Source: Terriglobia bacterium (GTDB lineage Bacteria; Acidobacteriota; Terriglobia; 20CM-2-55-15). Taken from it: a stretch of 64,000 nt of DNA. The translations under genes and the position numbers were made by a program. The notes under the pieces are model-generated. The model saw nothing but the letters and a program-made list of their open reading frames with translations, searched no databases and had not been told where the DNA came from. The DNA lies in contig CBDCKF010000002.1 in assembly GCA_965218085.1 (NCBI GenBank), positions 3,912,288 through 3,976,287 on the forward strand. Reading direction: 5' to 3'. Position 1 is the stretch's first letter; each line of letters opens with the position of its first letter. Positions 3,951-55,661 of this stretch are shown piece by piece.

Positions 3951-4023
3951 TGGTGGGAGTTCCTCCTCGGGAATGGGTATTGATACCAAGACCATCCAGC
4001 GGGTATCATCTCCACTTGTCTAT

Positions 4024-4097
4024 GGGGTCGTAGTTCAGCTGGTTAGAACGCCGGCCTGTCACGCCGGAGGTCGCGAGTTCGAGTCTCGTCGGCCCCG
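4024..4097 (+). tRNA. tRNA-Asp (GTC)
   Basis: ggggtcgtagttcagctggttagaacgccggcctgtcacgccggaggtcgcgagttcgagtctcgtcggccccg. Cloverleaf with anticodon loop ctGTCac and T-loop ttcgagt. Confidence 0.9.
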
Positions 4098-4115
4098 TTT
4101 ATTTGCTGTAACTTA

Positions 4116-9740: not shown

Positions 9741-9781
9741 GATACGTCACTTGTCTAAAAAGATACGTCACTTGTCTAAAA
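9741..9781. repeat. Tandem direct repeat 2 x ~21 bp (gatacgtcacttgtctaaaaa) in an intergenic region
   Basis: Seen directly at 9741-9781. Confidence 0.6.
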
Positions 9782-9946
9782 GATGATTGTCAAGTTATAC
9801 CACTCCAGTCTTGAGGTTCTTGGTCCTGCGTCGACCGGTTGATCTGGCATCGTTTGTGAGGACCTGAGAGTTTTCTTGCGTATAAATTCCATCCGTAGTT
9901 ACATTTACCCAATTTTTAGCGGTTCGGTCCGCGACACATTAAAACA

Positions 9947-9997
9947 ATGGCATCCGGCACCAAACTGGGGCACTTCGAGATCCCTACTGCCATCTGA
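9947..9997 (+). pseudogene. Ser/Thr protein kinase 5' stub (MASGTKLGHFEI...)
   Basis: Shares the conserved start and leader (tttagc...atggNatccggcaccaaact) with the stub at 25517. Stops after 16 codons. Confidence 0.4.
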
Positions 9998-10469: not shown

Positions 10470-10925
10470 ATGGCGGAACTGATCGGCCAGCTCTCTGTGC
10501 CCCTGGTACTGCTTCTGCTTGGTTTTTTCGCAGGCCGGGTTGCAGAACGGAATCATTACAAGAGCATCCACGAACGCGAAGAGAAATTCCTGTCCAAACC
10601 GACAATTACAACGAAAACGATTGAGGACGGACGGCAGGTTCAAAATGCAGCACTTGCGACCGGTTCGATCGTGGTCAGCGTGGATTACTTCAAACGATTT
10701 CTTTCCGCGTTCCGAATGCTGTTCGGCGGGGAACTCGGAGCTTACGCCTCGGTACTGGACCGCGGGAAACGGGAAGCCGTCCTCCGTATGAAAGAATCCT
10801 GCCCATCAGCCGACGTGTACCTTAATTTCCGGATCGAAACCGCTTCGATATCCAAGGGCAGGGGGAAAACCATCGGTTCGGTCGAGGTTGTCGCCTACAG
10901 CACGGCCGTCAAGTTTAAGGCATGA
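10470..10925 (+). CDS. Membrane-anchored YbjQ/DUF74-like protein
   Basis: N-terminal TM helix followed by a YbjQ-like domain. ATGA overlap with the next gene. Confidence 0.55.
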   Translation: MAELIGQLSVPLVLLLLGFFAGRVAERNHYKSIHEREEKFLSKPTITTKTIEDGRQVQNAALATGSIVVSVDYFKRFLSAFRMLFGGELGAYASVLDRGKREAVLRMKESCPSADVYLNFRIETASISKGRGKTIGSVEVVAYSTAVKFKA

Positions 10926-11476
10926 AGTTCGTCCCCAAAAGACTTCACAAGACCGCGGACATCTCCAGAGGCAAGACGAGCTTCAAAGGCTGGGTCAAGC
11001 ATGTCGTTTTCGGAGTGGTGACCATCGTTGTCCTATACTTTGGAATTGGCCTGGTCACCGACCTGGTCGTCACCAACATTTCTGAGGAAACAGAAGTATT
11101 GTTGTTTTCCTGGACGTTCAGGGCGATGGCCGTGGCATCCGACGACGAAGACGAAGAACTGGATCGCGCTGAGGCGATTTTCTCGAAGCTCATTGAAAAG
11201 TCCGATGTCCGTCCCCTGCCCTACGAGCTTTTCGTGATGGACCTGCCGGACCCAAACGCACTGGCTCTTCCGGGTGGTGGTGTCGGGGTGACTCGCGGTC
11301 TGCTGGAAAGAGTCGAAAGCGAAACCGGCCTTGCCATGGTCCTGGCTCACGAACTGGGCCATCACGAGGGTCGGCACAGCTTGAAACGGCTGGGCCGAAC
11401 TCTGGCTTGGAACACCCTGCTTGGCGTGGCATTGGGCGGTAGCGTTGACCTGTCTCCCCTAGCAGCCCGTGGTTAA
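10922..11476 (+). pseudogene. M48/HtpX-like zinc metallopeptidase, 5' part, interrupted by IS5-like insertion
   Basis: HELGHHEGRH zinc motif. The reading frame runs into the IS end (IS-encoded LAARG*). The C-terminal part resumes at 12972. Confidence 0.75.
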
Positions 11477-12969
11477 AGTCCACTTCACAGATTCAAACGG
11501 ACCCGATTTCAAACGGACCCGATGCGACCGTATCGCGAAGAATGATGAGTGAAGGAGGACGGGATATGGGCATGGGACGAAAGAGACGACGCCAGGAATC
11601 GCTGTGGATCGCGACACAGGAGTTGCCGCGGACCAAAGGACACGTGTTCTACGAACGGGTGAACCGGATTCTGGAAGAAGACGGATTCGACCCGTTTGTT
11701 GAAGAAGCCTGCCAGAAGTTCTACGCCCCGGTGATGGGTCGGCCCGGTGTCGTGCCGGGTGTGTACTTTCGGATGCTGCTGGTCGGCTACTTCGAAGGGA
11801 TTGACTCGGAACGCGGCATCGCCTGGCGGTGTGCCGACTCGCTGAGCCTGCGGGAGTTTCTGGGCATTGGGCTGACCGATGGTACCCCGGATCATTCCAG
11901 CGTGTCGCGGACACGCCGGCTGATCGATCTGGAAACCCATGCCCAGGTGTTCCACTGGATGCTGGAGCGGCTGGCCGGGCACGGGTTGATCGACGGGAAG
12001 ACGGTTGGCGTGGACGCGACGACGCTGGAAGCGAACGCGGCAATGCGGTCGATCGTGCGGCGAGACACCAGGAACAGTTATGAGGACTTTCTGAAGGAGT
12101 TGGCCCACGCTTCGGGCATTGAAACGCCGACACGAGCCGAACTGGCGCGACTGGACCGGAAACGGCCGAAGAAGGGATCGAACGACGACTGGGTGCATCC
12201 CGACGACGCGGATGCGCAGATCACCAAGATGAAAGACGGCCGCACGCATTTGGCTCACAAGCTGGAACACGCTGTGGATATGAAGACCGGCGTCGTGCTG
12301 GGGGTGACGGTTCAGGGTGCTGCCACCGGGGATACGACGACAATCAAAGAGACGTTGATCCGCACGGCCGAGAACATGGAGAAGCTGGCAAGCAACCCGA
12401 AAACCGAAGCGCAGATTCGAGAAGATTGGTTTTCTGAAGTCGTCGCCGATAAGGGATATCACAGCAACGAAACGATGGTCGATCTTCGCGAATTGGGGAT
12501 ACGCACCTACATCTCGGAACCGGATCGGGGCCGTCGCCGCTGGAAGAACAAGCCGGACGAACAACAGGCTGTCTATGCCAATCGCCGTCGAATCCGTGGA
12601 GAACGCGGCAAGGAGTTGTTGCGGCATCGCGGCATGATGCTGGAACGACCCTTCGCTCACGGTCTGGAAACCGGCGGCATGCGACGGGTTCACCTTCGAG
12701 GACGGGAAAATATCCTGAAACGGATCCTGGTTCACTACGCGGCCTTGAACCTGGCGTTGATCCTGCGCCAGAAGTTCGGGCAGGGCACGCCACGGAGCCT
12801 GCAGGACCGGTCTGCGGCATACTTTGCCGCTCAAATCGTGCTCTTCTGCGTCCAGATGGCGCTTCAAACGCATCATGAACTCCGTCAGCTGGATATCGAG
12901 CCCAACGTGGCTATCGAATCCGACGTTACGACTGTATCAGAGAATCTCACTTCTGCCACGGGCTGCTAG
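11459..12969 (+). mobile_element. IS5/IS1182-superfamily insertion sequence, copy 1 (~1.5 kb)
   Basis: Terminal IR ctagcagcccgtgg / ccacgggctgctag and CTAG on both sides. Nearly identical to copy 2 at 52044..53537 apart from a 16-bp internal duplication (ttcaaacggacccga) in copy 1. Confidence 0.85.
11542..12969 (+). CDS. IS5-family DDE transposase (475 aa, intact)
   Basis: MMSEGGRDMGMGRKRRRQESLWIATQELPRTKGHVFYERVNRILEEDGFD... The stop lies inside the right IR. Confidence 0.85.
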   Translation: MMSEGGRDMGMGRKRRRQESLWIATQELPRTKGHVFYERVNRILEEDGFDPFVEEACQKFYAPVMGRPGVVPGVYFRMLLVGYFEGIDSERGIAWRCADSLSLREFLGIGLTDGTPDHSSVSRTRRLIDLETHAQVFHWMLERLAGHGLIDGKTVGVDATTLEANAAMRSIVRRDTRNSYEDFLKELAHASGIETPTRAELARLDRKRPKKGSNDDWVHPDDADAQITKMKDGRTHLAHKLEHAVDMKTGVVLGVTVQGAATGDTTTIKETLIRTAENMEKLASNPKTEAQIREDWFSEVVADKGYHSNETMVDLRELGIRTYISEPDRGRRRWKNKPDEQQAVYANRRRIRGERGKELLRHRGMMLERPFAHGLETGGMRRVHLRGRENILKRILVHYAALNLALILRQKFGQGTPRSLQDRSAAYFAAQIVLFCVQMALQTHHELRQLDIEPNVAIESDVTTVSENLTSATGC

Positions 12970-12971
12970 AG

Positions 12972-13220
12972 TTGGGAGTACGACTGACCGAATCCGGCTA
13001 CGGGCGCGATCAGGAACGCGACGCCGATCGATTCGCGATGCGACTCGTCCACGAAGTCTATGGCCATACAGAGGGCACGCTGGAGTTTTTCGAGCTTGTC
13101 CAGTCCGAGTCCGGCCAGGACGAATCTGAGTGGCTCGAGTTCGTATCCACTCACCCGCTCACGACCGATCGCATATCCGATCTGAAGGAACTACAAGAGG
13201 AATTAGACGCACGGGAATAG
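12972..13220 (+). pseudogene. M48 peptidase 3' part (resumes after the IS)
   Basis: GYGRDQERDADRFAMRLV...STHPLTTDRI is the C-terminal M48 glutamate/STHP region. Confidence 0.7.
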
Positions 13221-13248
13221 GGTCTTGTGAACCTAACCCTCAGAGGCC

Positions 13249-13301
13249 GAATCGTCCTGAACTGGTTTGAAGAACTGAAGGAACGGGTGCCGGTGCGGTA
13301 G
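13249..13301 (+). repeat. Kinase C-terminal box #1 (…IVLNWFEELKERVPVR*) with no palindrome
   Basis: Member of a six-copy family of ~55-bp coding-like boxes. Confidence 0.5.
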
Positions 13302-13382
13302 GGCAAGCGGCCACTATGCCGAGACTAGCGGAATTGGCAGAAACATTGCATCTAAGGATTGGTGCTTGGCTCGGAAAAAAGG

Positions 13383-14261
13383 TTATTTGACCAGTTCCAT
13401 TCCTTCAGCCACTATCTGGTCGACAAACTGTTGTTGCCATCCATCAATAGCCTTTCGATAACCTTCAGGATCGATGAATGCCCTGTAGCCTTCTCCCTGC
13501 TTCATACGTATTATCTTGTCACCCAGACCGTACCAGTAACCGTGTCCGCCCAGAAAAATATCCACCGGCATTTTCTTCAGCTTTTCAAATGTGCCTGCAA
13601 AGTCCTCTGCCATATTCGGATATTCGGGGTGACCCAAAACGGGCCTTGCTGCAATTCTGACACCACCTAGTAACAAGACATTATATTTTTGATTATCCTC
13701 CTCTGCGACCATGGAAAATGAAATGCACCCTCTGGTATGCCCCGGCGTAAGGTTGACAGTTAGTGCTATATCACCAAGCCGTATGACTTCCCCGTCCTCT
13801 ACGACCCGGTCAACCTTTGCAGGCCGCCAGTCGCCGCCTCTGAAGTCAGTTGCGCCCCCAGTCTCAATCACCTCTTTGTCTGCGGCAGATGCCAGGATTG
13901 ATGCCCCTGTCATTTCCTGCATACGATAATGACCTTCAACATGATCGCTATGTGCATGGGTACCAATAATTAACATGATGTCTTCTGGATCGAAACCCAG
14001 CTTTTTGATGTTATTTATAATGACCGGGACAGAGACATCATAAGCAGTATCAATGATGATATGTCCATCCGACCCCGTAACCAGGTAAGAAGCAGCCTGC
14101 ACATACTCTCCGACGAAATAAATATTGTCGACAATATTAAAGGGTTCAACGGGTACGGTTCGATCTGGATGGTCCTCGGGCGGTGAGACCGGTGCTTGCG
14201 CCAGGGCGCCCACGGAATACAGAAGAAATACCAAGATACTAATCACATCTGACTTTTTCAT
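13383..14261 (-). CDS. Subclass B3 metallo-beta-lactamase (secreted)
   Basis: Signal peptide MKKSDVISILVFLLYSVGALA. GTHAHSDH (HxHxDH) plus downstream His and GHTRGC motifs as in L1/GOB/FEZ enzymes. By eye the gene is ~47% GC against ~60% for its surroundings. Good SD (agggggaaaaaaATG). Confidence 0.8.
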   Translation of the reverse strand: MKKSDVISILVFLLYSVGALAQAPVSPPEDHPDRTVPVEPFNIVDNIYFVGEYVQAASYLVTGSDGHIIIDTAYDVSVPVIINNIKKLGFDPEDIMLIIGTHAHSDHVEGHYRMQEMTGASILASAADKEVIETGGATDFRGGDWRPAKVDRVVEDGEVIRLGDIALTVNLTPGHTRGCISFSMVAEEDNQKYNVLLLGGVRIAARPVLGHPEYPNMAEDFAGTFEKLKKMPVDIFLGGHGYWYGLGDKIIRMKQGEGYRAFIDPEGYRKAIDGWQQQFVDQIVAEGMELVK

Positions 14262-14417
14262 TTTTTTCCCCCTGACCTGTGATGGATTGTTGAGTCTATC
14301 AAAAAGCTGCGATTCCCAGCCATCGGAAGCAGAACAATCTGATGCATCCGTTCCCTTAATAGCAATTCGTTCTTGGAAGTGGCAGACGAACAGGTTAAGT
14401 GGCGGTCTGTCCCCCAA

Positions 14418-14502
14418 ATCAACGTCGTCCTGAACTGGTTTGAAGAACTGACCGAACGGGTGCCGGCGCCGTGATTTTCGAGGTCAAGTCTCGAGAAATC
14501 AT
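14418..14502 (+). repeat. Kinase C-terminal box #2 (INVVLNWFEELTERVPAP*) plus left half of the 37-bp palindrome
   Basis: gtcaagtctcgagaaatcat is the left palindrome half, ending exactly at the IS30 junction site. Confidence 0.5.
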
Positions 14503-14574
14503 GCCGGCTCAATCGGTCGATGCAACACATGCGTTAAATCGTTCGGCCGGAGTCCGAAACCCCAGCGTTTGACG
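14503..14574 (-). mobile_element. IS30-family right-end remnant (encodes transposase C-terminus …TPAERFNACVASTD*)
   Basis: gccggctcaatcggtcgatgcaacacatgcg... matches the right end of the IS30 copy at 33047. Confidence 0.5.
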
Positions 14575-14885
14575 AAGCCGTATCTGACAAATTTCGGATG
14601 CTATGGAGTTTCTGGTAGGCACACAGTCCAGTGGACCGTATCGTCGAAAAGTAAAGCGGGCCGTACCGTTGGAACGGCCCGGAAGTCGCGGCCTGAGGCT
14701 CGATGTGATCCCATCACCTTCTGTTGATGCAGTCCACTAGATACGCCCTCGAGTCGCGTTCGACGCTCGATCGCGGCCCGCCTGATCTGGCCGAGGGTCT
14801 TCGCCGCTGGTTATGGAACCTCGATGTAGTCGAACAAGGCATCCGGCGCATGGCCGAACGCCCCGTTCCAATCGCCGGATAGCTC

Positions 14886-15848
14886 TTACGGCTCGAGCGA
14901 GGCGAGGTAGGCCGAGAGATTGAGAACATCCTCGTCGGTCAAATCGGCGACCGCGCTCCGCATGAGGGCCGCATTCGCGCCACCGCGGGCACCGTGTCTA
15001 ATGTCAAACATCTGGCGCGCGAGATAGATGGGTGAGCGACCCGCGATGCTGGGAACCTGCCCGAGACCTTTTAGATCTGGGCCGTGACACAGCGAGCACT
15101 GAATAGAGCGCCCCCCGTCCGTGGTCGCAAGCTCCTTGCCCGCCGCAACGCTTCCAGGAGGGACATAGGCCATAAACGGGCTATGCGAATCCCGCAGCTC
15201 GGCCAATTCGGAATTTTCGGGAATCTCGATAATACGATTTCCGATAGGCTCCATCCCGCCACCCTGCTCGGCATGGCGCATATTGCCGCCGCCCACATAG
15301 GTTTCGGGAACCATGTCGGCCTCTATGACGGTTATCCATTTCACCGGCGGCAGCGAAGCAAAATATTCTGCGGCAATCCGCATTTCCTCTTCGGTCATTG
15401 CACCGGCGATTGCAATCATGCTCCTCGAACGTGCCGGAACAAGACTTTCACGGGTGCCTCTCTGATAGGCCATCGACTGCGCGACAATGTAGTCGGCCGG
15501 TAAACCGGCAAGGCTCGCCGATTCCGGATGTCCGGCACCGTGCGGCATGTGGCACTGGGCGCAGGCGCGCACCAGCGGTTGGCGGCCACGCGCCACCACT
15601 TCGGGCATTGGCGGATGCTCGTCCGGATACCAATCGGGCGGCGCAAACCGATCATTGATCTGCGTTTGGGTAAGCTGAAGATCGCTTCCCTCCACGCTGT
15701 GGAGCGTCCCGTCGTCCGGGCCCCGTCCGCGACCTTCCTCCATTACCGGATAGGCCCAGGGGGGAGGCTCGAAACCATCGACGGATTGGGCGACCACAGC
15801 ACCGACACAGAACGCAACGAGCACCGCAACACCGACTAGTTTCTTCAT
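14886..15848 (-). CDS. Secreted di-heme c-type cytochrome
   Basis: Signal peptide and two CxxCH motifs (CAQCH, CSLCH). Confidence 0.75.
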   Translation of the reverse strand: MKKLVGVAVLVAFCVGAVVAQSVDGFEPPPWAYPVMEEGRGRGPDDGTLHSVEGSDLQLTQTQINDRFAPPDWYPDEHPPMPEVVARGRQPLVRACAQCHMPHGAGHPESASLAGLPADYIVAQSMAYQRGTRESLVPARSRSMIAIAGAMTEEEMRIAAEYFASLPPVKWITVIEADMVPETYVGGGNMRHAEQGGGMEPIGNRIIEIPENSELAELRDSHSPFMAYVPPGSVAAGKELATTDGGRSIQCSLCHGPDLKGLGQVPSIAGRSPIYLARQMFDIRHGARGGANAALMRSAVADLTDEDVLNLSAYLASLEP

Positions 15849-16122
15849 TGGCTATTCCCTCCCCTGTTACGCTGGTTGGATTCGGGGCTAAACATTACTG
15901 GGATTTCAGCGGCTCTACAAGACCAAAAACGAAGACCTCACCCACTGCTCGCTTGAGTTGACGATACGAGCGGGTGGCGCACGGCGGGGCGTCAGATCAA
16001 CACGCGTAGTTGGTTAGCGGTTGTGCAGACAACTACAAAGAAGCGCGATTCCGGTTTGTGGCCTAACGAAGCGATGCACCGGACGGCAGCTGCGTTGCTG
16101 GCGGGATACCGCCCTAGGTCGA

Positions 16123-16206
16123 ATCAACATCGTCCTGATCTGGCTTGAAGAACTCATCGAACGGGTGCCGGTGCCGTAGAACCTTGAAATCCATTGTCAA
16201 GTCCTG
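16123..16206 (+). repeat. Kinase C-terminal box #3 (INIVLIWLEELIERVPVP*) plus left palindrome half
   Basis: Same family. Followed by tcaagtcctg. Confidence 0.5.
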
Positions 16207-16258
16207 TATCTGGACTCCTCTTTGATGCCGATTCATTCATAAAAGAGGAGTCCAGATA
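16207..16258. mobile_element. 52-bp miniature element built from two inverted IS110-type termini
   Basis: tatctggactcctcttt-[18 nt]-aaagaggagtccagata sits at the IS110 insertion position inside a palindrome copy (flanks tcaagtcctg | agggacttgaga). Confidence 0.45.
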
Positions 16259-16433
16259 AGGGACTTGAGATTTTCTTTGTTCCCAATTCCCTGCTGTGAT
16301 TAGATTTATCGAGTTTCTCGTAAAAACAAACAGCGTGATTTGTGGCGCTCAGTTCAGGTACAGAACTCAGCCCATATCGAATCACCGGCCAAAAAGCGGA
16401 GGATCCATGAAAAAATTCCTCGCTGGGTTTTTC

Positions 16434-18042
16434 CTAGCAGCCTGTCGGACTTTTGGGGCCGGAGTTGGATGTCGGGCATGCGAGAAACAGGGGCATGAGC
16501 GAACGATTTCTTGCTGTGGATCGAGACACGCCGTACTTGTTGCCGCCGTCGGTCCAGGATTGGCTTCCGGAAGAGCACCTGGCGCGGTTCGTTGTAGAGG
16601 TGGTGACGAAGCTGGACCTGCGTGACCTGGAGAAGGAGTACGCGGGGCGGGGTTCGAAGGCCTACCATCCGGAGATGCTGCTGGCGTTGCTGTTCTACGG
16701 ATACGCGACGGGAGTGTTTGCGAGCCGGAAACTGGAACAGGCGACGTGGGATTCGCTGGCGTTCCGATATATCGCGGCGAACACGCATCCAGATCACGAC
16801 ACGATCGCGGCGTTTCGGAAGCGGTTTCTGAAGCAGTTGAAGCCGTTGTTCGTGCAGATTCTTCTGCTGGCGCGGACGATGGGATTTTTGAAGCTGGGGA
16901 AGATCAGTCTGGATGGGAGCAAGGTCCAGGCGAATGCATCGAAACATAGCGCGTTGAGCTGGGGGCACGCGACGGAGTTGGAAGAACAGTTGAAGGCCGA
17001 AGTCGCGCGCCTGATGGAGTTGGCGGCGGCGGCCGACGCGGAAGTGCCGGAGGGAATGGACATCCCGGCCGAACTGAAGCGGCGCGAGGACCGGCTGAAA
17101 GCGATCGCCGAGGCGAAAGCGAAGATGGAGGCGCGCGCTGCGGAACGCCATGCGGCCGAGCAGGCCGAGTACGAGGCCAAGATGGCCCAACGCAAGGCCC
17201 GGGCCAAAGCGACCGGGAAACGGCCGGGAGGCAAGCCGCCGCAACCGCCCCAATCGGGCGTGCGCCCGAACGACCAGATCAATCTGACCGACGAGGAATC
17301 GCGCATCATGCCGGCGGGCGGGAAGAGTTTCCAGCAAGCCTATAACGTGCAGGCGGGGGTCGACACCGAGACCCTGCTCATCGTCACCGAATCCGTCACA
17401 ACGCACGCCAACGACAAACAGGAAATCGAACCGGCGCTCGGGACTCTCGATGCACTGCCTCAACCGCTGGGAAAGGTCGAGGCGATACTGGCCGACAATG
17501 GCTACTACAGCGAAGGGAACGTGAAGGCGTGCGAAACGGCCGGCGTGATGCCCTACATCGCCATGGGCCGTGAGCGCCATCATCCACCGGTGGAACAGCG
17601 TTGGACCGAACCGCCACCGCTGTCGCCCGACGCGAACCCGGTCGACGCCATGGCCCATCGGCTATCGACGATCGAGGGCCGGGCCGTTTACGCTCAGCGC
17701 AAGTCCACGGTCGAGCCGGTGTTTGGAATCGTCAAATCCGTGCTGGGATTCCGGCAGTTTCACCTCAGGGGACTCGACCCGGTATCCGGTGAATGGACAC
17801 TGGTCAGCATCGCCTGGAACCTGAAACGCCTGTTCAATCTCTCCGGGCAGGTCTCCTGCCCGACTGATCCCCGCTCCAGCCGCCCGTCCGGACGCCAAAA
17901 ACGCGACTCCGGGCTCCTGCGTGGATCTCTGGCGTCCGAATCCGGCTCTCTCTTGCGACGTCTCAGGTCGATCGTCTCGTCAATGTTCAATCACACGCTC
18001 GGAGACGCGCCGTTGCTACGGTCAAGTCCGACAGGCTGCTAG
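16434..18042 (+). mobile_element. IS1182-like insertion sequence (~1.6 kb)
   Basis: 17-bp perfect terminal IR ctagcagcctgtcggac and CTAG on both sides. Inserted in codon 10 of a cyclase-family gene. Confidence 0.8.
16495..18042 (+). CDS. IS1182/IS5-superfamily DDE transposase (~515 aa, central coiled-coil)
   Basis: MSERFLAVDRDTPYLLPPSVQDWLPEEHLARFV...DNGYYSEGN. Confidence 0.8.
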   Translation: MSERFLAVDRDTPYLLPPSVQDWLPEEHLARFVVEVVTKLDLRDLEKEYAGRGSKAYHPEMLLALLFYGYATGVFASRKLEQATWDSLAFRYIAANTHPDHDTIAAFRKRFLKQLKPLFVQILLLARTMGFLKLGKISLDGSKVQANASKHSALSWGHATELEEQLKAEVARLMELAAAADAEVPEGMDIPAELKRREDRLKAIAEAKAKMEARAAERHAAEQAEYEAKMAQRKARAKATGKRPGGKPPQPPQSGVRPNDQINLTDEESRIMPAGGKSFQQAYNVQAGVDTETLLIVTESVTTHANDKQEIEPALGTLDALPQPLGKVEAILADNGYYSEGNVKACETAGVMPYIAMGRERHHPPVEQRWTEPPPLSPDANPVDAMAHRLSTIEGRAVYAQRKSTVEPVFGIVKSVLGFRQFHLRGLDPVSGEWTLVSIAWNLKRLFNLSGQVSCPTDPRSSRPSGRQKRDSGLLRGSLASESGSLLRRLRSIVSSMFNHTLGDAPLLRSSPTGC

Positions 18043-19093: not shown

Positions 19094-19198
19094 ATCAACA
19101 TCGTCCTGAACTGGCTTGGAGAACTCATCGAACGGGTGCCGGTGCCCTAGTTTTCCGAAGGTCAAGTCCTGAGAAATCATCTTCTCGGACGTTGAGAA
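19094..19198 (+). repeat. Kinase C-terminal box #4 (INIVLNWLGELIERVPVP*) plus intact 37-bp palindrome
   Basis: tcaagtcctgagaaatcatcttctcggacgttgagaa at 19163-19198. Confidence 0.55.
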
Positions 19199-19376
19199 TT
19201 TCAGCAAACGGAAGCTAGAACTCAGACCGAGACTACCCCTGTGTTACTCGAAAGCAAAGGACACGCCATCTGTCAGAAATGGAGATATGCGGACACTCTA
19301 AAACGAGTATGTTCCGTTGATGTGTGATGTCCAGGAACGATCGAATCCCACCCGGTCGTGTGAGAATAAAGTTCCG

Positions 19377-30221: not shown

Positions 30222-30330
30222 TTCTCAAGTCCTCATAAATCATGCCGGCTCAACCGGTCGATGCAACACATGCGTTTAAGGTCTCTGCCGGATTAGCGAA
30301 CTCCAGCGTCTCACGAGGTCTTCCAATCGC
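30222..30330 (-). mobile_element. Left palindrome half plus IS30-family right-end remnant (encodes …RPRETLEFANPAETLNACVASTG*)
   Basis: ttctcaagtcctcataaatcat | gccggctcaaccggtcgatgcaacacatgcg... Confidence 0.5.
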
Positions 30331-31701: not shown

Positions 31702-31809
31702 ATCAACATCGTCCTAAACTGGTTTGAAGACCTGAAACCCCGGCAGAACGATTTAATGCATGTGTTGCATCGACCGGTTGAGCTGGCACATCTTGTCGGA
31801 CGTTGAGAA
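31702..31809 (+). repeat. Kinase C-terminal box #6 fused to an IS30 right-end remnant, followed by right palindrome half
   Basis: CINIVLNWFEDLK then IS30 end (…PAERFNACVASTG*) then atcttgtcggacgttgagaa. Confidence 0.5.
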
Positions 31810-31849
31810 TCCCGCCAGTGGGTTGGTGCCTCCTTGTGAGTCAGGCACG

Positions 31850-32860: not shown

Positions 32861-33046
32861 GATGTCAGGAAGGCACTGTCAACTTAACATCGCCGGTCCG
32901 ATCTGAGGGCGTGTGGATTCAGATAGATCAAGCTGGCAAGACTGCTTCCCTCCACGCTAAAGAACGTGTCCGCAACATCTGGCAATGAACCGCTCTAAGT
33001 CTGTGTCTGGCCAGCCGAAAATGAGTCTCAAGCCCTGACAAATCAT

Positions 33047-34273
33047 TTCAGATCAACCGGTCGATGCAACACCTGCGTTTAATGTCTCTGCCGGATTAGC
33101 GAAGTCCAGCGTCTCACGGGGTCGCCCGTTGAGCTTCCTTGCGATCATATCCAAATGCTCCTGTGAGTGAACCGACAAGTCCGTCCCTTTAGGGAAATAC
33201 TGTCGGAGCAAACCGTTCGTGTTTTCGTTCGAACCCCGTTGCCAAGGACTCCGCGGATCGCAAAAGTAAACGGCAATGTCGGTGGCCAGAGTGAACCGTT
33301 TGTGATTGGCCATTTCCAATCCGCGATCCCAGGTCAGTGTTTTATAGAGTTCGGTCGGGAGTTTGTCTGCGTGTTCGATCAGCGCGTTGATGACGGTTTC
33401 AGTTTCCTTATTCGGAACCTTCACCAGCATCACGTAACGGGAGTAACGTTCGACCAATGTCGCAATGTAGGTGTTCTTCGAACCCGCTATGAGATCCCCT
33501 TCCCAGTGACCGGGAATCGCACGATCTTCGACCGAAGCCGGGCGCTCACGGATCGAGACCATGTCTTCGATCTGTCCGCCTCCATGGCCTTTCCGGCTCG
33601 CTTTTGCGGATCGGCGATTCGTGCGTTTGGTCCGCAGATACTGAGTCAGTTCTTTCTTCAGAACCCCGCGGGCCTGGATAAAAAGGCTGCGATAGATCGT
33701 TTCGTGTGACACGTGAAGCGACTCGTCATCCGGGTATGTGCGTTTCAGCCAGCCGGCGATTTGCTCGGGCGACCAGACCTGACGCAGCTTCTCTTCCACA
33801 AGCTGCCGTAAGCGGGGCCAGCCGACACGACTTTCCACGGCGCGCCCTCTCCTAGGCCGCCTCATCCGCTGCCGCTGCCCGATAGCTATCATAGCCTCCG
33901 TTACGGGAAATCTCCCGGCTCACCGTCGATGGCGCACGACCCAATCGCACGGCAATCGAACGGATCGAATCTTTGGCCGCAATACCTCTGGAGATCTCAT
34001 CACGTTCGGCCAGAGTCAGTGCCCGTGATGACCGGCAACGGGGCTGCGGACGGATGCCCCCGTACACGGCCAGTTGACGATGAATCGCCGATCCACCTCT
34101 GTCTAGAATGCGTCCGATCTCTTTGGTCGATTCTCCTCGGTGCCAGTGATTCCTCACCTCGACCAGTTCGGACGCCGTGAACCACCGTCGCTTCCTCATC
34201 TGTTTCTTCTTTCGTTTCTTCCGCATACACTTCACCGCTCCTTTTACGTAACGTGTTGCATCGACCCATTGAA
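33047..34273 (-). mobile_element. IS30-family insertion sequence (~1.2 kb) inserted at the centre of a palindrome copy
   Basis: Ends …ggtcgatgcaacac… in both orientations. Flanks tctcaagccctgacaaatcat | … | …cctcttctcggacattgagaa. Confidence 0.75.
33053..34235 (-). pseudogene. IS30-family transposase disrupted by a TGG-to-TAG nonsense and a 1-nt frameshift
   Basis: N-terminal HTH ORF ends …AADEAA* where relatives read AAW… Downstream frame shifts in a C-run (ctggccccgc) before …LVEEKLRQVWSPEQIAGWLK. Confidence 0.75.
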
Positions 34274-34642
34274 ATCACCCCTCTTCTCGGACATTGAGAA
34301 TTCGTTGATTCCAACCATTGCTTCCAACCCACTCACTCCAAAGCTAGAACTGGTTGCCACAAACCGACTTCTGGAGCGTTGAATTAGAATCGGTAAACGA
34401 AACGGTGTTTTTCGCGGGTAATCGTTGCCGGGAACAATCCAGGTCCGTCAAGAGATGACTGGGAGACCTTAGAGTACGAGCCACTTGTCCGGATAAGCGG
34501 AAATACAGGGGTTGGGAATTTCATAGCGCCTAACTCCCTGCCCTAGTAAAATTTATCCTGATTCTCGCCCTTCTCGCAGTGACGAATGATCACGACGGAA
34601 TCCGGCCCAAAAACTCAGCTTCTGTGAGATCCACGGGCGGCC

Positions 34643-37235: not shown

Positions 37236-37440
37236 TCGTAGCGGAGAATCAAATCGCCTATCTGGCCTCCGTTGTCAAGTATTCGCAGCTCTCCTGTTCT
37301 CCTTCCTGATAGATAATGTTTTCAGCAAGCTGAGCAGCGTTTGGAGTTGGGTGGCAGGTCGACTGCACCCGTATCTCCGGCCTCGTGAGTGGAACTGTTG
37401 GGTTCCGGGCCATGATGGAATTCGCTGCGCGGGTTGGTAT
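37236..37440 (-). mobile_element. Solo IS110-family (IS1111-type) 3' end remnant
   Basis: …gggtgcagtcgac…gacaggagag.tgcg..tacttgacaa…ccagata is conserved with the 3' ends of both IS110 copies. The transposase and left end are absent. Confidence 0.5.
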
Positions 37441-50615: not shown

Positions 50616-50688
50616 GGCCCCATCGTCTAGTGGTTTAGGACGTAGCCCTCTCAAGGCTAAAACACGGGTTCGACTCCCGTTGGGGCTA
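50616..50688 (+). tRNA. tRNA-Glu (CTC)
   Basis: GGCCCCATCGTCTAGTGGTTTAGGACGTAGCCCTCTCAAGGCTAAAACACGGGTTCGACTCCCGTTGGGGCTA. Anticodon stem TAGCC/GGCTA, loop ctCTCaa. Confidence 0.85.
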
Positions 50689-51242: not shown

Positions 51243-52047
51243 ATGCGACGCAATCTTATCTTAGGAGGGCTGGCTAGCCTGGTGGTGGTAGTTCTAATGG
51301 CACACCCTGTCTTGGCACAGGTCGACCTAAATGGCGACGGCAAGGTCGATGCTGTTTTCACGAAAATAGGCGTACAGCAAGCGAATCCATACAGCCAAGT
51401 CTGCTTCGGCGACGGGGCGGGCGGTTTCTCCTCGTGCAGTGATGTAAAGGGTGGAATTACGGACGAAATAGCAACAAACGCCTTGACCACCGCGGCAGCT
51501 CTGGGCGATTTCGATGGCGACGGCGACGTCGATATCTTCTTTTCGATGCAATCTAGGGCGCCATTTCCAAGTGGAGTAGGTATGACGGCTTCGAATGCGT
51601 TGTGTGTGAACGACGGCACAGGTGCGTTTCCAGACTGCCTCACCATGGGCGCAGGAAAAATTAGCGAAGATGTAGCCCTGGGCGATCTGAACGGTGACGG
51701 CAAGCTTGACGCCGTTCTTGCGAATTCAGGAGGTCCAGCTTTAAGCGAGAAGAACTTCGTCGTTTTAGGCGCCGGTGGACTAGGCACCGTGGGCGTAGAA
51801 CCATTTTACAACACGCAAAACCTCAGCACCGGGGTGGCGCTGGGTGACGTCGACCAAGACGGCAAGCTCGATGTCGTTTTCGCAAATTCCGGCGCGCTGA
51901 ATACTGTTTGTATCAACGATGGCAACACTGCAGGTCAAGCGGGTCAACCTCCAGAACCTTCGTTCACGTGCAGTGACATCAGCCTTGCTCCCCGTCCCGG
52001 GCTGTTTACACCCACCCCTCAGAACACGACCAACGCAGTAGCTCTAG
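51243..52047 (+). pseudogene. Secreted FG-GAP/VCBS-repeat protein, 5' part (interrupted by IS5-like copy 2)
   Basis: Signal peptide. Repeated GDxDGDGKxD FG-GAP motifs. The frame runs into the IS end (…ALAARG…). Confidence 0.7.
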
Positions 52048-53467
52048 CAGCCCGTGGCAGAAGTGAGATTCTCTGACACAGTCGTAACGTCGGATTCGAT
52101 AGCCACGTTGGGCTCGATATCCAGCTGACGGAGTTCATGATGCGTTTGAAGCGCCATCTGGACGCAGAAGAGCACGATTTGAGCGGCAAAGTATGCCGCA
52201 GACCGGTCCTGCGGCTCCGTGGCGTGCCCTGCCCGAACTTCTGGCGCAGGATCAACGCCAGGTTCAAGGCCGCGTAGTGAACCAGGATCCGTTTCAGGAT
52301 ATTTTCCCGTCCTCGAAGGTGAACCCGTCGCATGCCGCCGGTTTCCAGACCGTGAGCGAAGGGTCGTTCCAGCATCATGCCGCGATGCCGCAACAACTCC
52401 TTGCCGCGTTCTCCACGGATTCGACGGCGATTGGCATAGACAGCCTGTTGTTCGTCCGGCTTGTTCTTCCAGCGGCGACGGCCCCGATCCGGTTCCGAGA
52501 TGTAGGTGCGTATCCCCAATTCGCGAAGATCGACCATCGTTTCGTTGCTGTGATATCCCTTATCGGCGACGACTTCAGAAAACCAATCTTCTCGAATCTG
52601 CGCTTCGGTTTTCGGGTTGCTTGCCAGCTTCTCCATGTTCTCGGCCGTGCGGATCAACGTCTCTTTGATTGTCGTCGTATCCCCGGTGGCAGCACCCTGA
52701 ACCGTCACCCCCAGCACGACGCCGGTCTTCATATCCACAGCGTGTTCCAGCTTGTGAGCCAAATGCGTGCGGCCGTCTTTCATCTTGGTGATCTGCGCAT
52801 CCGCGTCGTCGGGATGCACCCAGTCGTCGTTCGATCCCTTCTTCGGCCGTTTCCGGTCCAGTCGCGCCAGTTCGGCTCGTGTCGGCGTTTCAATGCCCGA
52901 AGCGTGGGCCAACTCCTTCAGAAAGTCCTCATAACTGTTCCTGGTGTCTCGCCGCACGATCGACCGCATTGCCGCGTTCGCTTCCAGCGTCGTCGCGTCC
53001 ACGCCAACCGTCTTCCCGTCGATCAACCCGTGCCCGGCCAGCCGCTCCAGCATCCAGTGGAACACCTGGGCATGGGTTTCCAGATCGATCAGCCGGCGTG
53101 TCCGCGACACGCTGGAATGATCCGGGGTACCATCGGTCAGCCCAATGCCCAGAAACTCCCGCAGGCTCAGCGAGTCGGCACACCGCCAGGCGATGCCGCG
53201 TTCCGAGTCAATCCCTTCGAAGTAGCCGACCAGCAGCATCCGAAAGTACACACCCGGCACGACACCGGGCCGACCCATCACCGGGGCGTAGAACTTCTGG
53301 CAGGCTTCTTCAACAAACGGGTCGAATCCGTCTTCTTCCAGAATCCGGTTCACCCGTTCGTAGAACACGTGTCCTTTGGTCCGCGGCAACTCCTGTGTCG
53401 CGATCCACAGCGATTCCTGGCGTCGTCTCTTTCGTCCCATGCCCATATCCCGTCCTCCTTCACTCAT
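52019..53467 (-). CDS. IS5-family transposase, copy 2, with a 1-nt deletion altering the last ~55 codons
   Basis: Identical to copy 1 up to …GQGTPRS, then gagccgcagg instead of gagcctgcagg shifts the frame and reading continues past the IS end. Confidence 0.75.
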   Translation of the reverse strand: MSEGGRDMGMGRKRRRQESLWIATQELPRTKGHVFYERVNRILEEDGFDPFVEEACQKFYAPVMGRPGVVPGVYFRMLLVGYFEGIDSERGIAWRCADSLSLREFLGIGLTDGTPDHSSVSRTRRLIDLETHAQVFHWMLERLAGHGLIDGKTVGVDATTLEANAAMRSIVRRDTRNSYEDFLKELAHASGIETPTRAELARLDRKRPKKGSNDDWVHPDDADAQITKMKDGRTHLAHKLEHAVDMKTGVVLGVTVQGAATGDTTTIKETLIRTAENMEKLASNPKTEAQIREDWFSEVVADKGYHSNETMVDLRELGIRTYISEPDRGRRRWKNKPDEQQAVYANRRRIRGERGKELLRHRGMMLERPFAHGLETGGMRRVHLRGRENILKRILVHYAALNLALILRQKFGQGTPRSRRTGLRHTLPLKSCSSASRWRFKRIMNSVSWISSPTWLSNPTLRLCQRISLLPRAARATALVVF

Positions 53468-53537
53468 CATTCTTCGCGATACGGTCGCATCGGGTCCGTT
53501 TGAATCTGTGAAGTGGACTTTAACCACGGGCTGCTAG
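52044..53537 (-). mobile_element. IS5/IS1182-superfamily insertion sequence, copy 2 (inverted relative to copy 1)
   Basis: Same IRs and CTAG flanks as copy 1. Lacks the 16-bp duplication. Confidence 0.85.
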
Positions 53538-55351
53538 GCGACGTGAACGCCGACGGTGTCCTTGACGCCATTTTTGCGAACACCGGACTCAATGAAAGAT
53601 GTATCGGCAACGGTACGGGCAGTTTCACTTGTACTGCACTCACGGCCACCTTAGAGAGGACAAGTGTCGGCGTGGCTGTGGGGGAACTTGGCTCTTTCGG
53701 TGACAGCTTTGCCGATATCGTTATTGCGAATGAGACAGAGGACGCCCAAATCTGCTTGGGGTTTACCTGCTTTTCTATCACCTCCGTACAATCCTCTACC
53801 GGAGTGGCTATCGGCGACGTGGACGGCGACGGCGACCTCGAATCCGTTTTTTCGAAATTTCTCTCAGCAAATCGTGTCTGCAACATTACTACGTGCACGG
53901 ATGCCAGCACACTCACGGGGAGATTTTCAGGCGTTGCGCTGAGCGACGGCCGAACATTCGAAGAAGATTTCAGTGGTACCGTGATCACGAATCTGGAAGA
54001 CGAGGATAACGCGTACACCGTATCGGGCGGCAAGATCAAGAACACGGCCTCTACGAGCGTTAACGATAGGCATTATATTCGGACCCATGTGACCGACTAC
54101 AACACCGTTGACTTTGTCGCTGAATTGACGTTTACGCTGACCAACGACACCGGTGACATGCTCCATTTTTTCGGACTGGGAGCAGGGATCCCAGATTTGA
54201 ATGCCACGGACGAACCAGCAACTGGGGCCTATTTCAGGATCCATAGCCCTAATACTGTGTCAGGAAGGGTGGACGCTTCTTTCAGAAACTTGACGTTTGC
54301 TGGCTCCGACGGCCTAGCGAACATCGGCCAAATGACCAATAGCGGCGGCACCCACCGGGCGCGGCTTGCCAAATCCGGGAACGAGTTGACTTTTAGCATG
54401 GACGTCAATTTCGATGGCATTGACGACGATGGGGATGGTTCGGTGTTCGATGCGGCTTTCACCTACACGGTCGCTGACCTGACCGCGGCAACGGCTGCGC
54501 CGTTTCTCGACAACACGAATAGTCGTATCTTTTTCGGCACAGCTTCTAGGATCGACACATTCGATGATTTCAAAGTCACGGCTGTTGTCGTCGCTGACAC
54601 GACAGCGCCGGTCGTCACTGTACCAAGTGACATCACGGAAGAAGCTACCAGTCCCGATGGAGCCGACGTCACCTTCTCGGCCTCAGCAACAGACGACGTG
54701 GACGGTTCGTTGACCCCGAGCTGTACGCCGTCGTCAGGCTCCACGTTCCCGCTCGACATGACCACCGAGGTTAGATGCGAGGCAACCGATAGCTCTAACA
54801 ACACCGGTGAGGCCTTCTTCGACGTGACGGTGGAAGATACGACCTCTCCCCAGTTCACCTCGGTTCCGGTCGATTTCGAAGTCGGCACGACTTTCGAGAA
54901 CCCACTTCAGGCGTTGGTTGAGTTCCAGGTTTCCGCGACTGACGCCGTGGGTGCGACTGTCACCTGTGTGCCGTCGTCGGGCTCCCTATTCCCTATCGGT
55001 CCGACCCAGGTCGATTGCGAGGCAAACGATGCCGCCGGCAATCCCCCTGCGACGACTTCGTTTAACGTCACAGTGCTCGGCTTTGGGGATCAAGTGGATG
55101 CCCTGGCCGAACTTGACGAAATTGACGCGTTACCCGCGAACATACAGCGCGGGCTCGACAACTTCCTGGCGTTCATTTCGAGGGTCGGCGACTCTAACCC
55201 GAACTCGGGCATCGCCGTCTCCGGAATGCTAGGCTCGTTTCAAAATCAGGTGCGCGCCCTGGTGCGGTCGCGCCGACTCTCTCCGGAAAATGGCGATGCG
55301 CTGATCAGCGCTACCGAGACAGTCCGAAACAACCTCGATCCTAGAAGGTAG
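53534..55351 (+). pseudogene. FG-GAP repeat protein 3' part with HYR domains (continuation of 51243)
   Basis: …GDVNADGVLDAIFANTG… FG-GAP, then DTTAPVVTVPSDITEEATSPDGADVTFSASATDDVDGSLTPSCTP HYR repeats. Confidence 0.7.
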
Positions 55352-55633: not shown

Positions 55634-55661
55634 GACGGGTTCGACTCCCGTTGGGGCTATT
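55634..55661 (+). repeat. 28-bp direct repeat of the tRNA-Glu 3' end (att-like)
   Basis: acgggttcgactcccgttggggctattc is identical to 50662-50689. Confidence 0.6.

Follow-up and report, generated by a model that had tools for sequence, protein, structure and literature searches.

How did a gene for a metallo-beta-lactamase (MBL), markedly poorer in GC than the DNA on either side, come to lie between repeated kinase gene fragments and among insertion sequences (ISs) in a member of the Terriglobia, and is it still mobile? In the window (the whole 64,000-nucleotide stretch of DNA analysed here), the original prediction described it as a recently acquired cargo gene in a mobilisable context. Our analysis points to a joint explanation that we consider probable: the product would be a di-zinc hydrolase of subclass B3 whose gene was gained horizontally, once, in the body of a redundant kinase gene, with the pair of IS5-like elements that brackets it uninvolved. 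The features on which this explanation draws are collected in Table 1.

Table 1. Features of the MBL locus and its surroundings, in window coordinates
Feature	Position	Strand	Evidence
IS5-like copy 1 (transposase 11542-12969)	11459-12969	+	repeats, gene calls, excision test
Box #1, orphan 3' end of upstream kinase (ending RIVLNWFEELKERVPVR and stop), about 6 further codons	13231-13301	+	repeats, blastx
Degenerate 5' start of the replaced 'kinase B'	13302-13337	+	alignment of window, L077, L079 and L004
Foreign low-GC MBL segment, about 1.0 kb	13338-14350	.	homology limits to L004, L077, L079 and kinases
Subclass-B3 metallo-beta-lactamase gene (predicted)	13383-14261	-	translation, NF033105 score, BJP-1 match, ligands, AF2/Foldseek
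Putative signal-peptide coding part, residues 1 to about 23, MKKSDVISILVFLLYSVGALAQA	14193-14261	-	by eye and modelled helix
Shine-Dalgarno-like AGGGGG, 6 nt before the MBL ATG	14268-14273	-	sequence
Kinase B 3' stub (about 26 codons) and box #2 (ending QINVVLNWFEELTERVPAP and stop)	14351-14474	+	blastx, repeat family
Left half of post-box palindrome and truncated IS30-like end	14482-14579	+	repeat family, inverted pair, alignment
Cytochrome c gene (14886-15848, minus), kinase 3' stub and box #3 (16109-16179)	14853-16179	.	L003 comparison
IS5-like copy 2	52044-53537	-	repeats, gene calls, excision test

Identity and predicted function of the enzyme

The MBL open reading frame (ORF) encodes 292 amino acids and a stop codon, begins with MKKSDVISILVF and carries the motifs HAHSDH (residues 102-107), GHTRGC (174-179) and GGHG (238-241), the first two as named in the original prediction. 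By eye, its N-terminus resembles a Sec signal peptide, with an MKKSD n-region, a hydrophobic core and an A-x-A motif (ALA followed by QA), and homologues have the same N-terminal layout. The putative signal peptide (MKKSDVISILVFLLYSVGALA, followed by QA) is modelled by AF2 as a helix over residues 3-20, at lower confidence (pLDDT 62-73). The Shine-Dalgarno-like sequence, also part of the original prediction, is kept in three other contexts of the gene (L077, L079 and L004), with G/A homopolymers of varying length. Since the assemblies are low-coverage long-read contigs (3-16x by their names), small indels in this tract, and in the 5' kinase remnant described below, could be sequencing errors. 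A scan for sigma-70 promoters and terminators around the gene gave nothing above shuffled expectation and no upstream promoter on the coding strand.

Is the protein a member of subclass B3, as claimed, or a glyoxalase II or some other enzyme of the MBL fold? It passes the NCBIfam B3 equivalog model NF033105 marginally (240.8 bits against a cut-off of 240, a margin of 0.8 bits), scores 107 against a cut-off of 100 with the class-B core domain model, and matches Pfam Lactamase_B at 1.6e-17; the HARLDQ_not_B3 exception model does not apply (167.6 against a cut-off of 350). The best 35 solved relatives are all B3 or B3-like, with BJP-1 first (E 2e-47), and glyoxalase II and ETHE1 match at E 1e-6 or weaker. 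Among 35 homologues of 37-86% identity, the ligands H104, D106, H107, H175 and H240 are invariant and H102 is conserved in at least 90%. HAHSDH aligns with THAHLDH of BJP-1, and H175 (in PGHTRGC) and H240 (in GGHG) align to its PGHSPGC and LGPHPE. The AF2 model (pLDDT 94.5, pTM 0.88) has the MBL alpha-beta/beta-alpha sandwich fold, and Foldseek places FEZ-1 first (TM 0.82/0.91, rmsd 1.4 A), followed by BJP-1, GOB-18 and LRA-12; the top 50 PDB matches are all B3 or B3-like. A glyoxalase II or other MBL-fold identity, which incomplete motifs would have favoured, is ruled out by the ligands, of which all six align, together with the family models, the solved relatives and the fold. As judged from sequence and model, the protein is a canonical subclass-B3 enzyme of an unnamed environmental lineage. 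Its scores fall below the cut-offs of all the family-specific NCBIfam models (BJP, FEZ, GOB, L1, SPG-1, SPR, PEDO, CAU, AIM, LMB and others), the best being BJP with 182.6 against 600 and the rest at most 164 against cut-offs of 400-700, and it is about 33-36% identical to characterised or solved B3 enzymes.

As with BJP-1 of Bradyrhizobium and FEZ-1 of Legionella gormanii, the protein is encoded on the chromosome of an environmental bacterium and is predicted to be secreted. It shares with them the fold, the six zinc ligands and a similar length, and they superpose on its model with TM scores of 0.81-0.82 (query) and 0.87-0.91 (target). It differs from them in sequence (33-36% identity, and 183 and 146 bits with their family models against cut-offs of 600) and in that its activity is predicted. 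LRA-12, MEM-A1 and Rm3, B3 enzymes from soil metagenomes, are likewise environmental and of similar fold; they are 29-32% identical to the protein, and their activity was shown by functional selection whereas that of the present enzyme is predicted. The plasmid-borne or mobile enzymes LMB-1 and AIM-1 are carried on mobile DNA, in contrast to the present gene, which lies without a defined mobile element and whose product is 29% identical to LMB-1.

By analogy with the family, the protein would be exported by its Sec signal peptide to the periplasm, Zn1 would be bound by H102, H104 and H175 (standard H116, H118 and H196) and Zn2 by D106, H107 and H240 (standard D120, H121 and H263), and a zinc-bridged hydroxide would open the beta-lactam ring of penicillins, cephalosporins and probably carbapenems. 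Both beta-lactam hydrolysis and its spectrum are predicted from family membership only. The natural substrate might instead be a non-beta-lactam, such as a lactone or another cyclic amide, with beta-lactamase activity incidental to the B3 fold. Outside the Terriglobia, in every lineage, the gene lies beside at least one large secreted Amidohydro_3-type gene, and in some cases two MBL genes stand there in tandem, an arrangement that hints at a common catabolic function; the score with the B3 equivalog model is a borderline one; and promiscuous B3 enzymes are known, MIM-1 and MIM-2 having lactonase activity and PNGM-1 tRNase Z activity. We nevertheless consider a different natural substrate unlikely: the ligands form the canonical HHH/DHH set, unlike HARLDQ and the other variant sets that are tied to loss of activity, the nearest structures are those of active beta-lactamases, and the Terriglobia kept the gene, intact in several strains, without an Amidohydro_3 partner. 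Such a substrate would be compatible with the main explanation rather than exclusive of it.

Foreign origin of the gene and its proposed insertion into a kinase gene

The window as a whole has a GC content of 0.567 and the flanks one of 0.57-0.62; at 0.477, the MBL gene is the lowest of the 45 in the window in GC (z = -3.1), as it is in GC3 (0.468, z = -2.8). The deviation that the original prediction had estimated by eye (about 47% against about 60%) is therefore real, and the copies in L077 and L079 likewise have a GC content of 0.48 amid surroundings of 0.57. Relatives at 73-77% identity lie in loci of 41-45% GC and those at 84-86% identity in loci of 54-58% GC. All of these occupy chromosomal loci in other lineages that are free of ISs, transposases and kinase boxes; their neighbours are Amidohydro_3-type or housekeeping genes, and two of the contexts are conserved across samples. 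Outside the Terriglobia clade, the nearest relative is 86% identical. Clustering at 90% gives the cytochrome c and the cyclase encoded nearby 14 members each but the MBL only 5, of which 2 are fragments. The plasmid collection holds no close relative, its best match of any kind being 35% identical, and a scan of JGI metagenomes found neither a near-identical copy nor a further Terriglobia context. Because its composition is foreign and its relatives lie in other lineages, in stable contexts, horizontal acquisition of the gene from another lineage is well supported.

The boxes between which the gene was originally placed are found at 13231-13301 (box #1) and 14404-14474 (box #2), with more at 16109, 19080 and 31693; their 23-nt core has five matches in the window, where none is expected by chance. 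They are the conserved last 17 or so codons of Ser/Thr kinases of about 900 residues, a large family that combines a Pkinase domain with a PD40 beta-propeller. Matches in the box scan come only from Terriglobia/Acidobacteria MAGs, and some 20 of about 105 copies stand at the end of ORFs 300-955 codons long, two of which were confirmed as Pkinase + PD40; orphan copies have ragged kinase stubs upstream. Kinase homology in blastx reaches 18 nt upstream of the core at box #1 and 78 nt at box #2, where positions 14352-14471 correspond to kinase residues 445-486 of 486. A literature search for the box motif NWFEEL returned nothing related.

The foreign segment continues for about 45 nt past the MBL stop codon and begins about 89 nt before the MBL start (GC 0.46-0.50), and in the 1-kb segment we found no terminal inverted repeats or target duplication above chance. 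In an alignment of the four contexts, an N-terminal kinase start lies beside the MBL stop and a C-terminal kinase stub beside the MBL start, and the junctions are the same in all four. The N-terminal start, that of kinase B, is kept in L079, where it reads MVGTTLAHYEITDKLGQGGMG, and carries 24-nt and 42-nt deletions in the window; its position can be compared with the stop/start junctions between tandem kinases.

The host genome contains many paralogous kinase genes encoding about 900 residues, frequently arranged in tandem and nearly identical at their 5' and 3' ends, and we propose that a lower-GC foreign segment of about 1 kb, bearing the MBL gene alone, was inserted into one kinase of such an array. 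The replaced kinase would have eroded to about 21 N-terminal and about 45 C-terminal codons, so that each flanking box would be a kinase 3' end, one belonging to the upstream kinase and the other to the replaced one, and later IS insertions (IS5-like, IS30-like, IS91-like, IS256 and IS4) and deletions would have altered the surroundings. An empty orthologous kinase locus was not recovered, an exact look-up of the neighbouring YbjQ protein giving the same strains only, and the replacement is therefore reconstructed from the stubs.

The same kinase/MBL junctions in at least four contexts, whose MBL ORFs are 97.4-99.3% identical, argue for a single arrival before the strains diverged; read from these junctions, the acquisition is a single event in the ancestor of several strains. 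Of the original description of the gene as recently acquired, the acquisition stands, on composition and relatives, and the recency does not. A comparison with related genomes had also been proposed, and it found the unit in L004, L077 and L079, which places it before strain divergence.

Insertion sequences and the question of mobility

Nothing shows present-day mobility of the MBL gene. The description of its context as mobilisable receives circumstantial support from the density of ISs and from one relative that lies by an IS91-type element, but in the window no terminal repeats, target duplications or recombinase accompany the MBL segment.

Might the whole box-MBL-box unit be a mobile cassette, with the kinase termini as portable recombination sites that act either as homology arms or as substrates of a recombinase? 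Cargo between a kinase 5' stub and a 3' box could then take the place of any kinase paralogue's body, in the same genome or in another. The unit recurs with identical inner junctions in four unrelated neighbourhoods. The cytochrome c module of the window, stub and box included, recurs at 97.7% identity in L003, where the neighbourhood differs and homology stops at the box stop codon. L003 also has a series of five directly oriented boxes, and the intervals of 0.7-2 kb that separate them contain small genes unrelated to one another. Kinase remnants standing alone are mostly extreme ends (27 N-terminal starts, which were unselected, vs 9 internal pieces), and boxes #1 and #2 have 25 identical bases in common. 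The outer differences among the neighbourhoods, however, are explained by ISs that entered the palindrome following the box (an IS30-like element in the window, an IS91-like one in L077) and by varied truncation of the upstream kinase, of which 6 codons are left in the window, 89 in L077 and a partial box in L079; such differences are the expected decay of one ancestral locus. Moreover, stub lengths are ragged rather than fixed, the boxes have no hairpin structure, no recombinase gene was called in the window, and outward erosion of a gene interrupted by an insertion would also leave terminal stubs. We regard a mobile cassette as distinctly unlikely. In its broadest form the proposal would make the Terriglobia kinase termini, together with the palindrome, genome-wide landing pads at which cargo that includes the MBL gene is swapped among loci and genomes, an integrase-free analogue of the integron, and this too strikes us as quite improbable.

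Two known systems bear on these arrangements. The minimal mobile elements of Neisseria are cassettes swapped by homologous recombination in conserved flanking genes, and with unrelated genes between conserved flanks and without a dedicated recombinase they provide a model for kinase termini acting as homology arms. The flanks in Neisseria are unique conserved genes, whereas those in the Terriglobia are the ends of multi-copy paralogues, and exchange here is putative. Members of the IS30 family prefer palindromic hot spots and their own inverted repeats as targets, and in the Terriglobia an IS30-like element (HTH_38 + rve) similarly lies in or next to a palindrome of about 45 nt that follows many boxes; complete copies occur at 33047-34280 in the window and at 11210-12480 in L003. 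The halves of the palindrome, however, match the outer 20 nt or so of the IS30-like element's own ends, and instead of being an independent target the palindrome may be a miniature IS30-like derivative or else an IR-IR junction. The IS30 remnant reported beside the MBL gene in the original prediction does exist, but the span given for it (14418-14574) merges it with box #2; its true limits are those in Table 1.

One-ended transposition of an IS91-family rolling-circle element with a companion tyrosine recombinase is another way in which the MBL segment could have been carried. The box-MBL unit of L077 and L078 directly adjoins a Phage_integrase gene, a Y2_Tnp/Zn_Tnp_IS91 transposase and the end of the element, and the window contains a 250-bp relative of this element end (20472-20726). 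The element end, however, abuts the palindrome outside box #2, which implies that it joined after the kinase/MBL junctions existed, and other elements occupy the equivalent position in the window, L079 and L004. In addition, the MBL gene lies downstream of the transposase gene, the side that is not co-mobilised in one-ended transposition of IS91. Carriage by such an element is thus very improbable.

The two IS5-like copies are inverted, 1.5 kb long and 99-100% identical, and they do bracket the 39 kb that contain the MBL gene, as the original prediction had observed; together with these 39 kb they could be taken for a 42-kb composite transposon with the gene as cargo. Each copy, however, splits a different gene and has both halves of that gene adjacent to it, whereas the halves of a single target would be expected outermost. 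Copy 1 splits an M48 peptidase gene (10922-11458 and 12970-13220), and its excision with one CTAG gives a 263-aa ORF; copy 2 splits an FG-GAP/HYR gene (51243-55351), and the same operation gives an 872-aa ORF. Copy 2 furthermore sits in a separate small islet at tRNA-Glu, and the arrangement is absent from the other MBL-bearing contigs. Since each copy splits its own gene, the 39 kb (12970-52043) did not arrive as a composite transposon, the probability of which we put close to nil, and the copies are read as two independent simple insertions.

An identity of the boxes as integron attC sites, with the MBL gene as an integron cassette, is hardly conceivable: direct repeats of about 70 nt do separate single genes, and behind several boxes lies an imperfect palindrome whose base is conserved and whose centre varies, but the boxes are in-frame 3' ends of real kinase genes of about 900 residues and do not fold (z +0.9 and +1.5), the cargo genes lie on either strand, the palindrome halves match the outer tips of the IS30-like terminal repeats, and no intI or Phage_integrase-family gene is found among the called genes covering 3383-60820 of the window.

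Two further candidates were rejected. A fixed-boundary att site, used in serial site-specific integration, does not agree with the ragged kinase homology upstream of orphan boxes (0-243 nt). A tRNA-linked island containing the MBL gene finds no support at either of the two tRNAs, the only Rfam matches in the whole window: tRNA-Asp (4023-4098) lacks a repeat, and the repeat of tRNA-Glu (copies at 50665-50688 and 55636-55659) encloses a different segment of 5 kb.

Significance for the B3 family and for soil Acidobacteria

The MBL is a further member of the known B3 family, lying in an IS-scrambled region, and its gene is a credible, if ordinary, environmental gene of the resistance type. No plasmid-borne or clinical relative above 35% identity was found, so that the direct risk looks low. 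The environmental B3 reservoir gains an uncharacterised, well-supported lineage, and its transfer into soil Acidobacteria is documented. For resistome surveys, the locus illustrates that proximity to ISs and low GC alone do not prove current mobility. The redundant kinase paralogues appear to be sinks for foreign DNA that leave arrays of terminal stubs resembling cassette arrays, and if these stubs promote exchange, a major soil phylum would have a new means of gene flow.

The encoded enzyme

Translation of the B3 metallo-beta-lactamase gene (MBL) bears out the original prediction of a 292-residue protein with GTHAHSDH- and GHTRGC-type motifs; HAHSDH occupies residues 102-107, GHTRGC 174-179 and GGHG 238-241, and a stop follows. 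A longer reading begins at a TTG, but the evidence points to the ATG at 14261 as the start, because AGGGGG lies 6 nt upstream, the N-terminus resembles a signal peptide and the length is the same as in all homologues. The G-run/A-run between this Shine-Dalgarno-like (SD) motif and the ATG varies among the copies in the window and in the related contigs L077, L079 and L004 (G5A6, about G5A4, about G8A2 and about G4A6). The variation could be long-read homopolymer error, since neither homopolymer lengths nor small indels can be trusted in these low-coverage long-read assemblies, or genuine variation able to affect translation. A promoter scan around MBL found none.

Incomplete motifs, or a glyoxalase II in disguise, had been named as grounds for refuting the prediction. 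Instead, all six B3 zinc ligands are present (Zn1, H116/H118/H196; Zn2, D120/H121/H263, in B3 numbering), and across 35 aligned homologues (37-86% identity) H104, D106, H107, H175 and H240 never vary, while H102 reaches at least 90% conservation. By sequence, the nearest solved relatives comprise only B3 enzymes and B3-like proteins, namely BJP-1 (E 2e-47) followed by FEZ-1, GOB-18 and LRA-12, while glyoxalase II, ETHE1 and lactonases match no better than E 1e-6. The AlphaFold model (pLDDT 94.5) superposes on FEZ-1 at 1.4 A (TM 0.82/0.91), and also on BJP-1. We infer that the protein is active as a beta-lactamase. It marginally passes the NCBI equivalog model for subclass B3 (240.8 bits, cut-off 240) and matches none of the named B3 family models, the best being BJP at 183 bits, where the cut-off is 600; no relative above 35% identity was found in a plasmid collection. 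B3 enzymes are widespread in environmental bacteria, Acidobacteria included, and MBL is a new, unnamed lineage within this known kind of enzyme.

Coordinates of features in the window and in related contigs (L numbers, loci from other assemblies)
Feature	Contig	Positions
MBL, minus strand	window	13383-14261
MBL, longer reading from TTG	window	extends to 14417
SD-ATG tract	window	14262-14273
Kinase boxes 1, 2 and 3	window	13231-13301; 14404-14474; 16109-16179
Kinase C-terminal stub with box 2 (blastx)	window	14352-14471
Five-box array	L003	3402-9835
Orphan kinase start, 15 codons	window	9947-9994
Tandem 21-nt unit	window	9741-9783
IS5-like copy 1	window	11459-12969
IS5-like copy 2	window	about 52044-53537
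tRNA-Glu(CTC) gene	window	50616-50688
Last 24 nt of tRNA-Glu; exact repeat	window	50665-50688; 55636-55659
Palindrome/IS30-like sites	window	19151-19201; 16197-16268; 14482-14502; 33026-34301; 30223-30320; 31737-31810; 9822-9871
Palindrome/IS30-like site	L003	11209-12503
IS30-like remnant after box 2	window	14482-14579
IS91-family element and tyrosine recombinase	L077	3390-5778
IS91-family element and tyrosine recombinase	L078	1-890; 3387-5778
Relative of IS91-like end	window	20472-20726
IS110-family copies	window	24243-25334; 28004-28909
IS110 arms	window	24261-25300; 27981-29020
AGTGGAACNGT..TTCCGGGCCATGATGG repeats	window	24022-24110; 29173-29252; 37344-37433
IS1182-like insertion	window	16442-18038
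Site of L002 insert	window	19325/19326
Source region of L002 insert	window	28860-29187

Composition and relatives

The predicted downward deviation in GC is also real: among 45 window genes MBL is lowest both in GC (0.477 against 0.567 for the window; z = -3.1) and in third-position GC (0.468, where the mean is 0.66; z = -2.8). Its closest relative outside the Terriglobia clade (86% identity, background GC 54%) adjoins endonuclease III and an Rnf/Nqr gene; relatives at 84% (56-58%) share a conserved context with a TPP enzyme; and those at 73-77% (41-45%) lie in a conserved context of citrate synthase, DUF4159 and several secreted Amidohydro_3 genes, in some cases as a tandem MBL pair. No transposases or boxes were seen near these 73-86% relatives. 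Among the Terriglobia contigs, homology is confined to the MBL reading frame with some 89 nt before its start and some 45 nt after its stop; with the outside relatives it is confined to the reading frame. Such limited flanks, the element-free contexts, the GC of 0.48 that the Terriglobia copies hold amid surroundings of 0.57, and the rarity of MBL in related assemblies (a cluster of five, including two fragments, where each neighbour gene has 14) support horizontal acquisition, probably from an unsampled, lower-GC lineage.

Outside the Terriglobia (L073, L074/L075, L085, L086 and L087; also L076 and L084) members of the MBL clade invariably adjoin at least one gene for a secreted Amidohydro_3-type protein of about 620 aa, and L074 and L085 hold tandem MBL paralogues; this neighbourhood hints at a common native function in donor lineages.

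Kinase boxes and junctions

The box repeats do flank MBL, as predicted, and each is the in-frame end of a gene: ...(I/V)(V/I)LNWFEELKERVPVP, then a stop. A scan of 185,579 species genomes restricts the box to one clade of Terriglobia (Acidobacteriota) MAGs, one of which, a 6.47-Mb contig, also carries a broken MBL copy; the window is accordingly assigned to this clade. Its sequence is matched without differences within an 879-kb contig from a long-read metagenome, and a 4.56-Mb NCBI contig encodes the identical MBL protein. About 20 of the roughly 105 copies in related genomes terminate reading frames of 300-955 codons; the two checked encode Ser/Thr kinases of 906 and 925 aa that have Pkinase at the N-terminus and a PD40 beta-propeller at the C-terminus, and some such kinases are tandem, the stop of the first overlapping the next start. 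The remaining copies, about 80%, are orphans whose upstream protein-level kinase homology is ragged (0-243 nt), which marks them as truncated kinase 3' stubs with no fixed repeat boundary. Among the related loci L003-L072, examples of orphan boxes and terminal remnants occur in L003, L020, L035, L044 and L072.

We aligned the window with three further contexts: L077/L078, where MBL adjoins an IS91-type transposase and a tyrosine recombinase; L079, where it lies near IS110 and a PQQ protein; and L004, where it is split by IS256 and enclosed by IS3 orfA and IS4. On the plus strand, box 1 closes an upstream kinase and directly abuts the beginning of the following kinase, which reads MVGTTLAHYEITDKLGQGGMG in L079 and has lost part of its sequence in the window; then come a low-GC segment of about 1 kb with MBL on the opposite strand and a 26-codon kinase C-terminal stub with box 2. 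With a kinase start at one side and a C-terminal stub at the other, the segment appears to have taken the place of a kinase paralogue's body, about 2.6 kb long. The inner kinase/MBL junctions are identical in all contexts and the MBL frames are 97.4-99.3% identical, arguing for a single insertion that predates the divergence of the MBL-bearing strains; the original view of a recent acquisition is not borne out. The outer flanks differ: the upstream kinase remnant comprises 6 codons in the window, 89 in L077 and part of the box in L079, and beyond box 2 a palindrome hosts different IS elements. Insertions of IS elements and deletions explain these differences. Carriage by IS91 is possible for later moves of MBL, but it leaves the original kinase/MBL junctions unexplained.

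Isolated kinase remnants are nearly all extreme ends (49 C-terminal ends, 27 N-terminal starts and 9 internal), N-terminal starts having been no selection criterion. A simple explanation is a gene split by insertion and then eroded outward, its ends persisting longest because selection acts against deletions that reach past them into useful neighbours. A role of the conserved termini as recombination arms moving cargo among kinase loci seems improbable to us and is not needed to account for the stubs. An integron is contradicted by boxes that are in-frame kinase gene ends and in which folding revealed no hairpin.

One locus, L003, resembles a cassette array, with five direct-orientation boxes 0.7-2 kb apart and unrelated small genes between them. 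Two recurrent junction classes, …ERPLMDV joined to WFEELKERVPVP and a stop, and …VSRTHEV joined to WFEELK…, have identical upstream sequence joined at an identical point (L020, L024, L032, L035, L036, L038, L044, L049, L055, L067, L068 and L069), which suggests other repeated elements ending or inserting at a fixed position within the box.

Mobile elements of the region

Many boxes and kinase stop codons, of intact genes and orphans alike, are followed by an imperfect palindrome of about 45 nt (GGTCAAGTCCTGAGAAATCATCTTCTCGGACGTTGAGAAT), whose halves match the outer ~20 nt of both terminal repeats of an IS30-like element (HTH_38 and rve) that is often present at this spot. The palindrome may have arisen from the element, as a miniature derivative or an IR-IR junction, or it may be the preferred target of that element; after box 3 a far longer hairpin (-28 kcal/mol, z = -8.3) stands on the same palindrome base. 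The IS30 remnant reported earlier is genuine, with its coordinates corrected so that it directly follows box 2. In a low-GC intergenic stretch, a tandemly duplicated 21-nt unit (agatacgtcacttgtctaaaa) has an IS30-like end remnant and an orphan kinase start close downstream.

The two inverted IS5-like copies proposed to bracket 39 kb around MBL are real, but the intervening DNA did not arrive as a unit. Copy 1 splits an M48 peptidase gene and copy 2 an FG-GAP/HYR gene, both halves adjoining the IS in each case, and in silico removal leaving one CTAG restores open frames of 263 and 872 aa, respectively. Each copy is a separate insertion of the same active IS, and a composite transposon is contradicted. 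Copy 2 sits in a separate 5-kb islet, bounded by the repeated 24-nt 3' end of tRNA-Glu, that holds only the split FG-GAP/HYR gene and no integrase.

Directly beside the box-MBL unit, L077 and L078 carry the IS91-family element (Y2_Tnp/Zn_Tnp_IS91) and a tyrosine recombinase of ~280 aa; the window has a 250-bp sequence related to the end of this element (79-80% identity) downstream of its M90 peptidase gene. Two inverted IS110-family copies (74% identical) flank a Na+/H+ exchanger gene, and the short conserved sequences beside them and at 37.3 kb may be IS110 target or end sequences. The IS1182-like insertion that separates box 3 from the cyclase gene is absent in L002, a near-identical strain, which instead carries a 328-bp insert copied from elsewhere in the region; from these differences, IS activity is ongoing within the population.

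We consider it likely that MBL encodes a periplasmic di-zinc B3 beta-lactamase gained in a single horizontal transfer; its segment would have inserted into a dispensable kinase paralogue, the interrupted kinase would have eroded to terminal stubs, and later IS activity would have scrambled the surrounding region.
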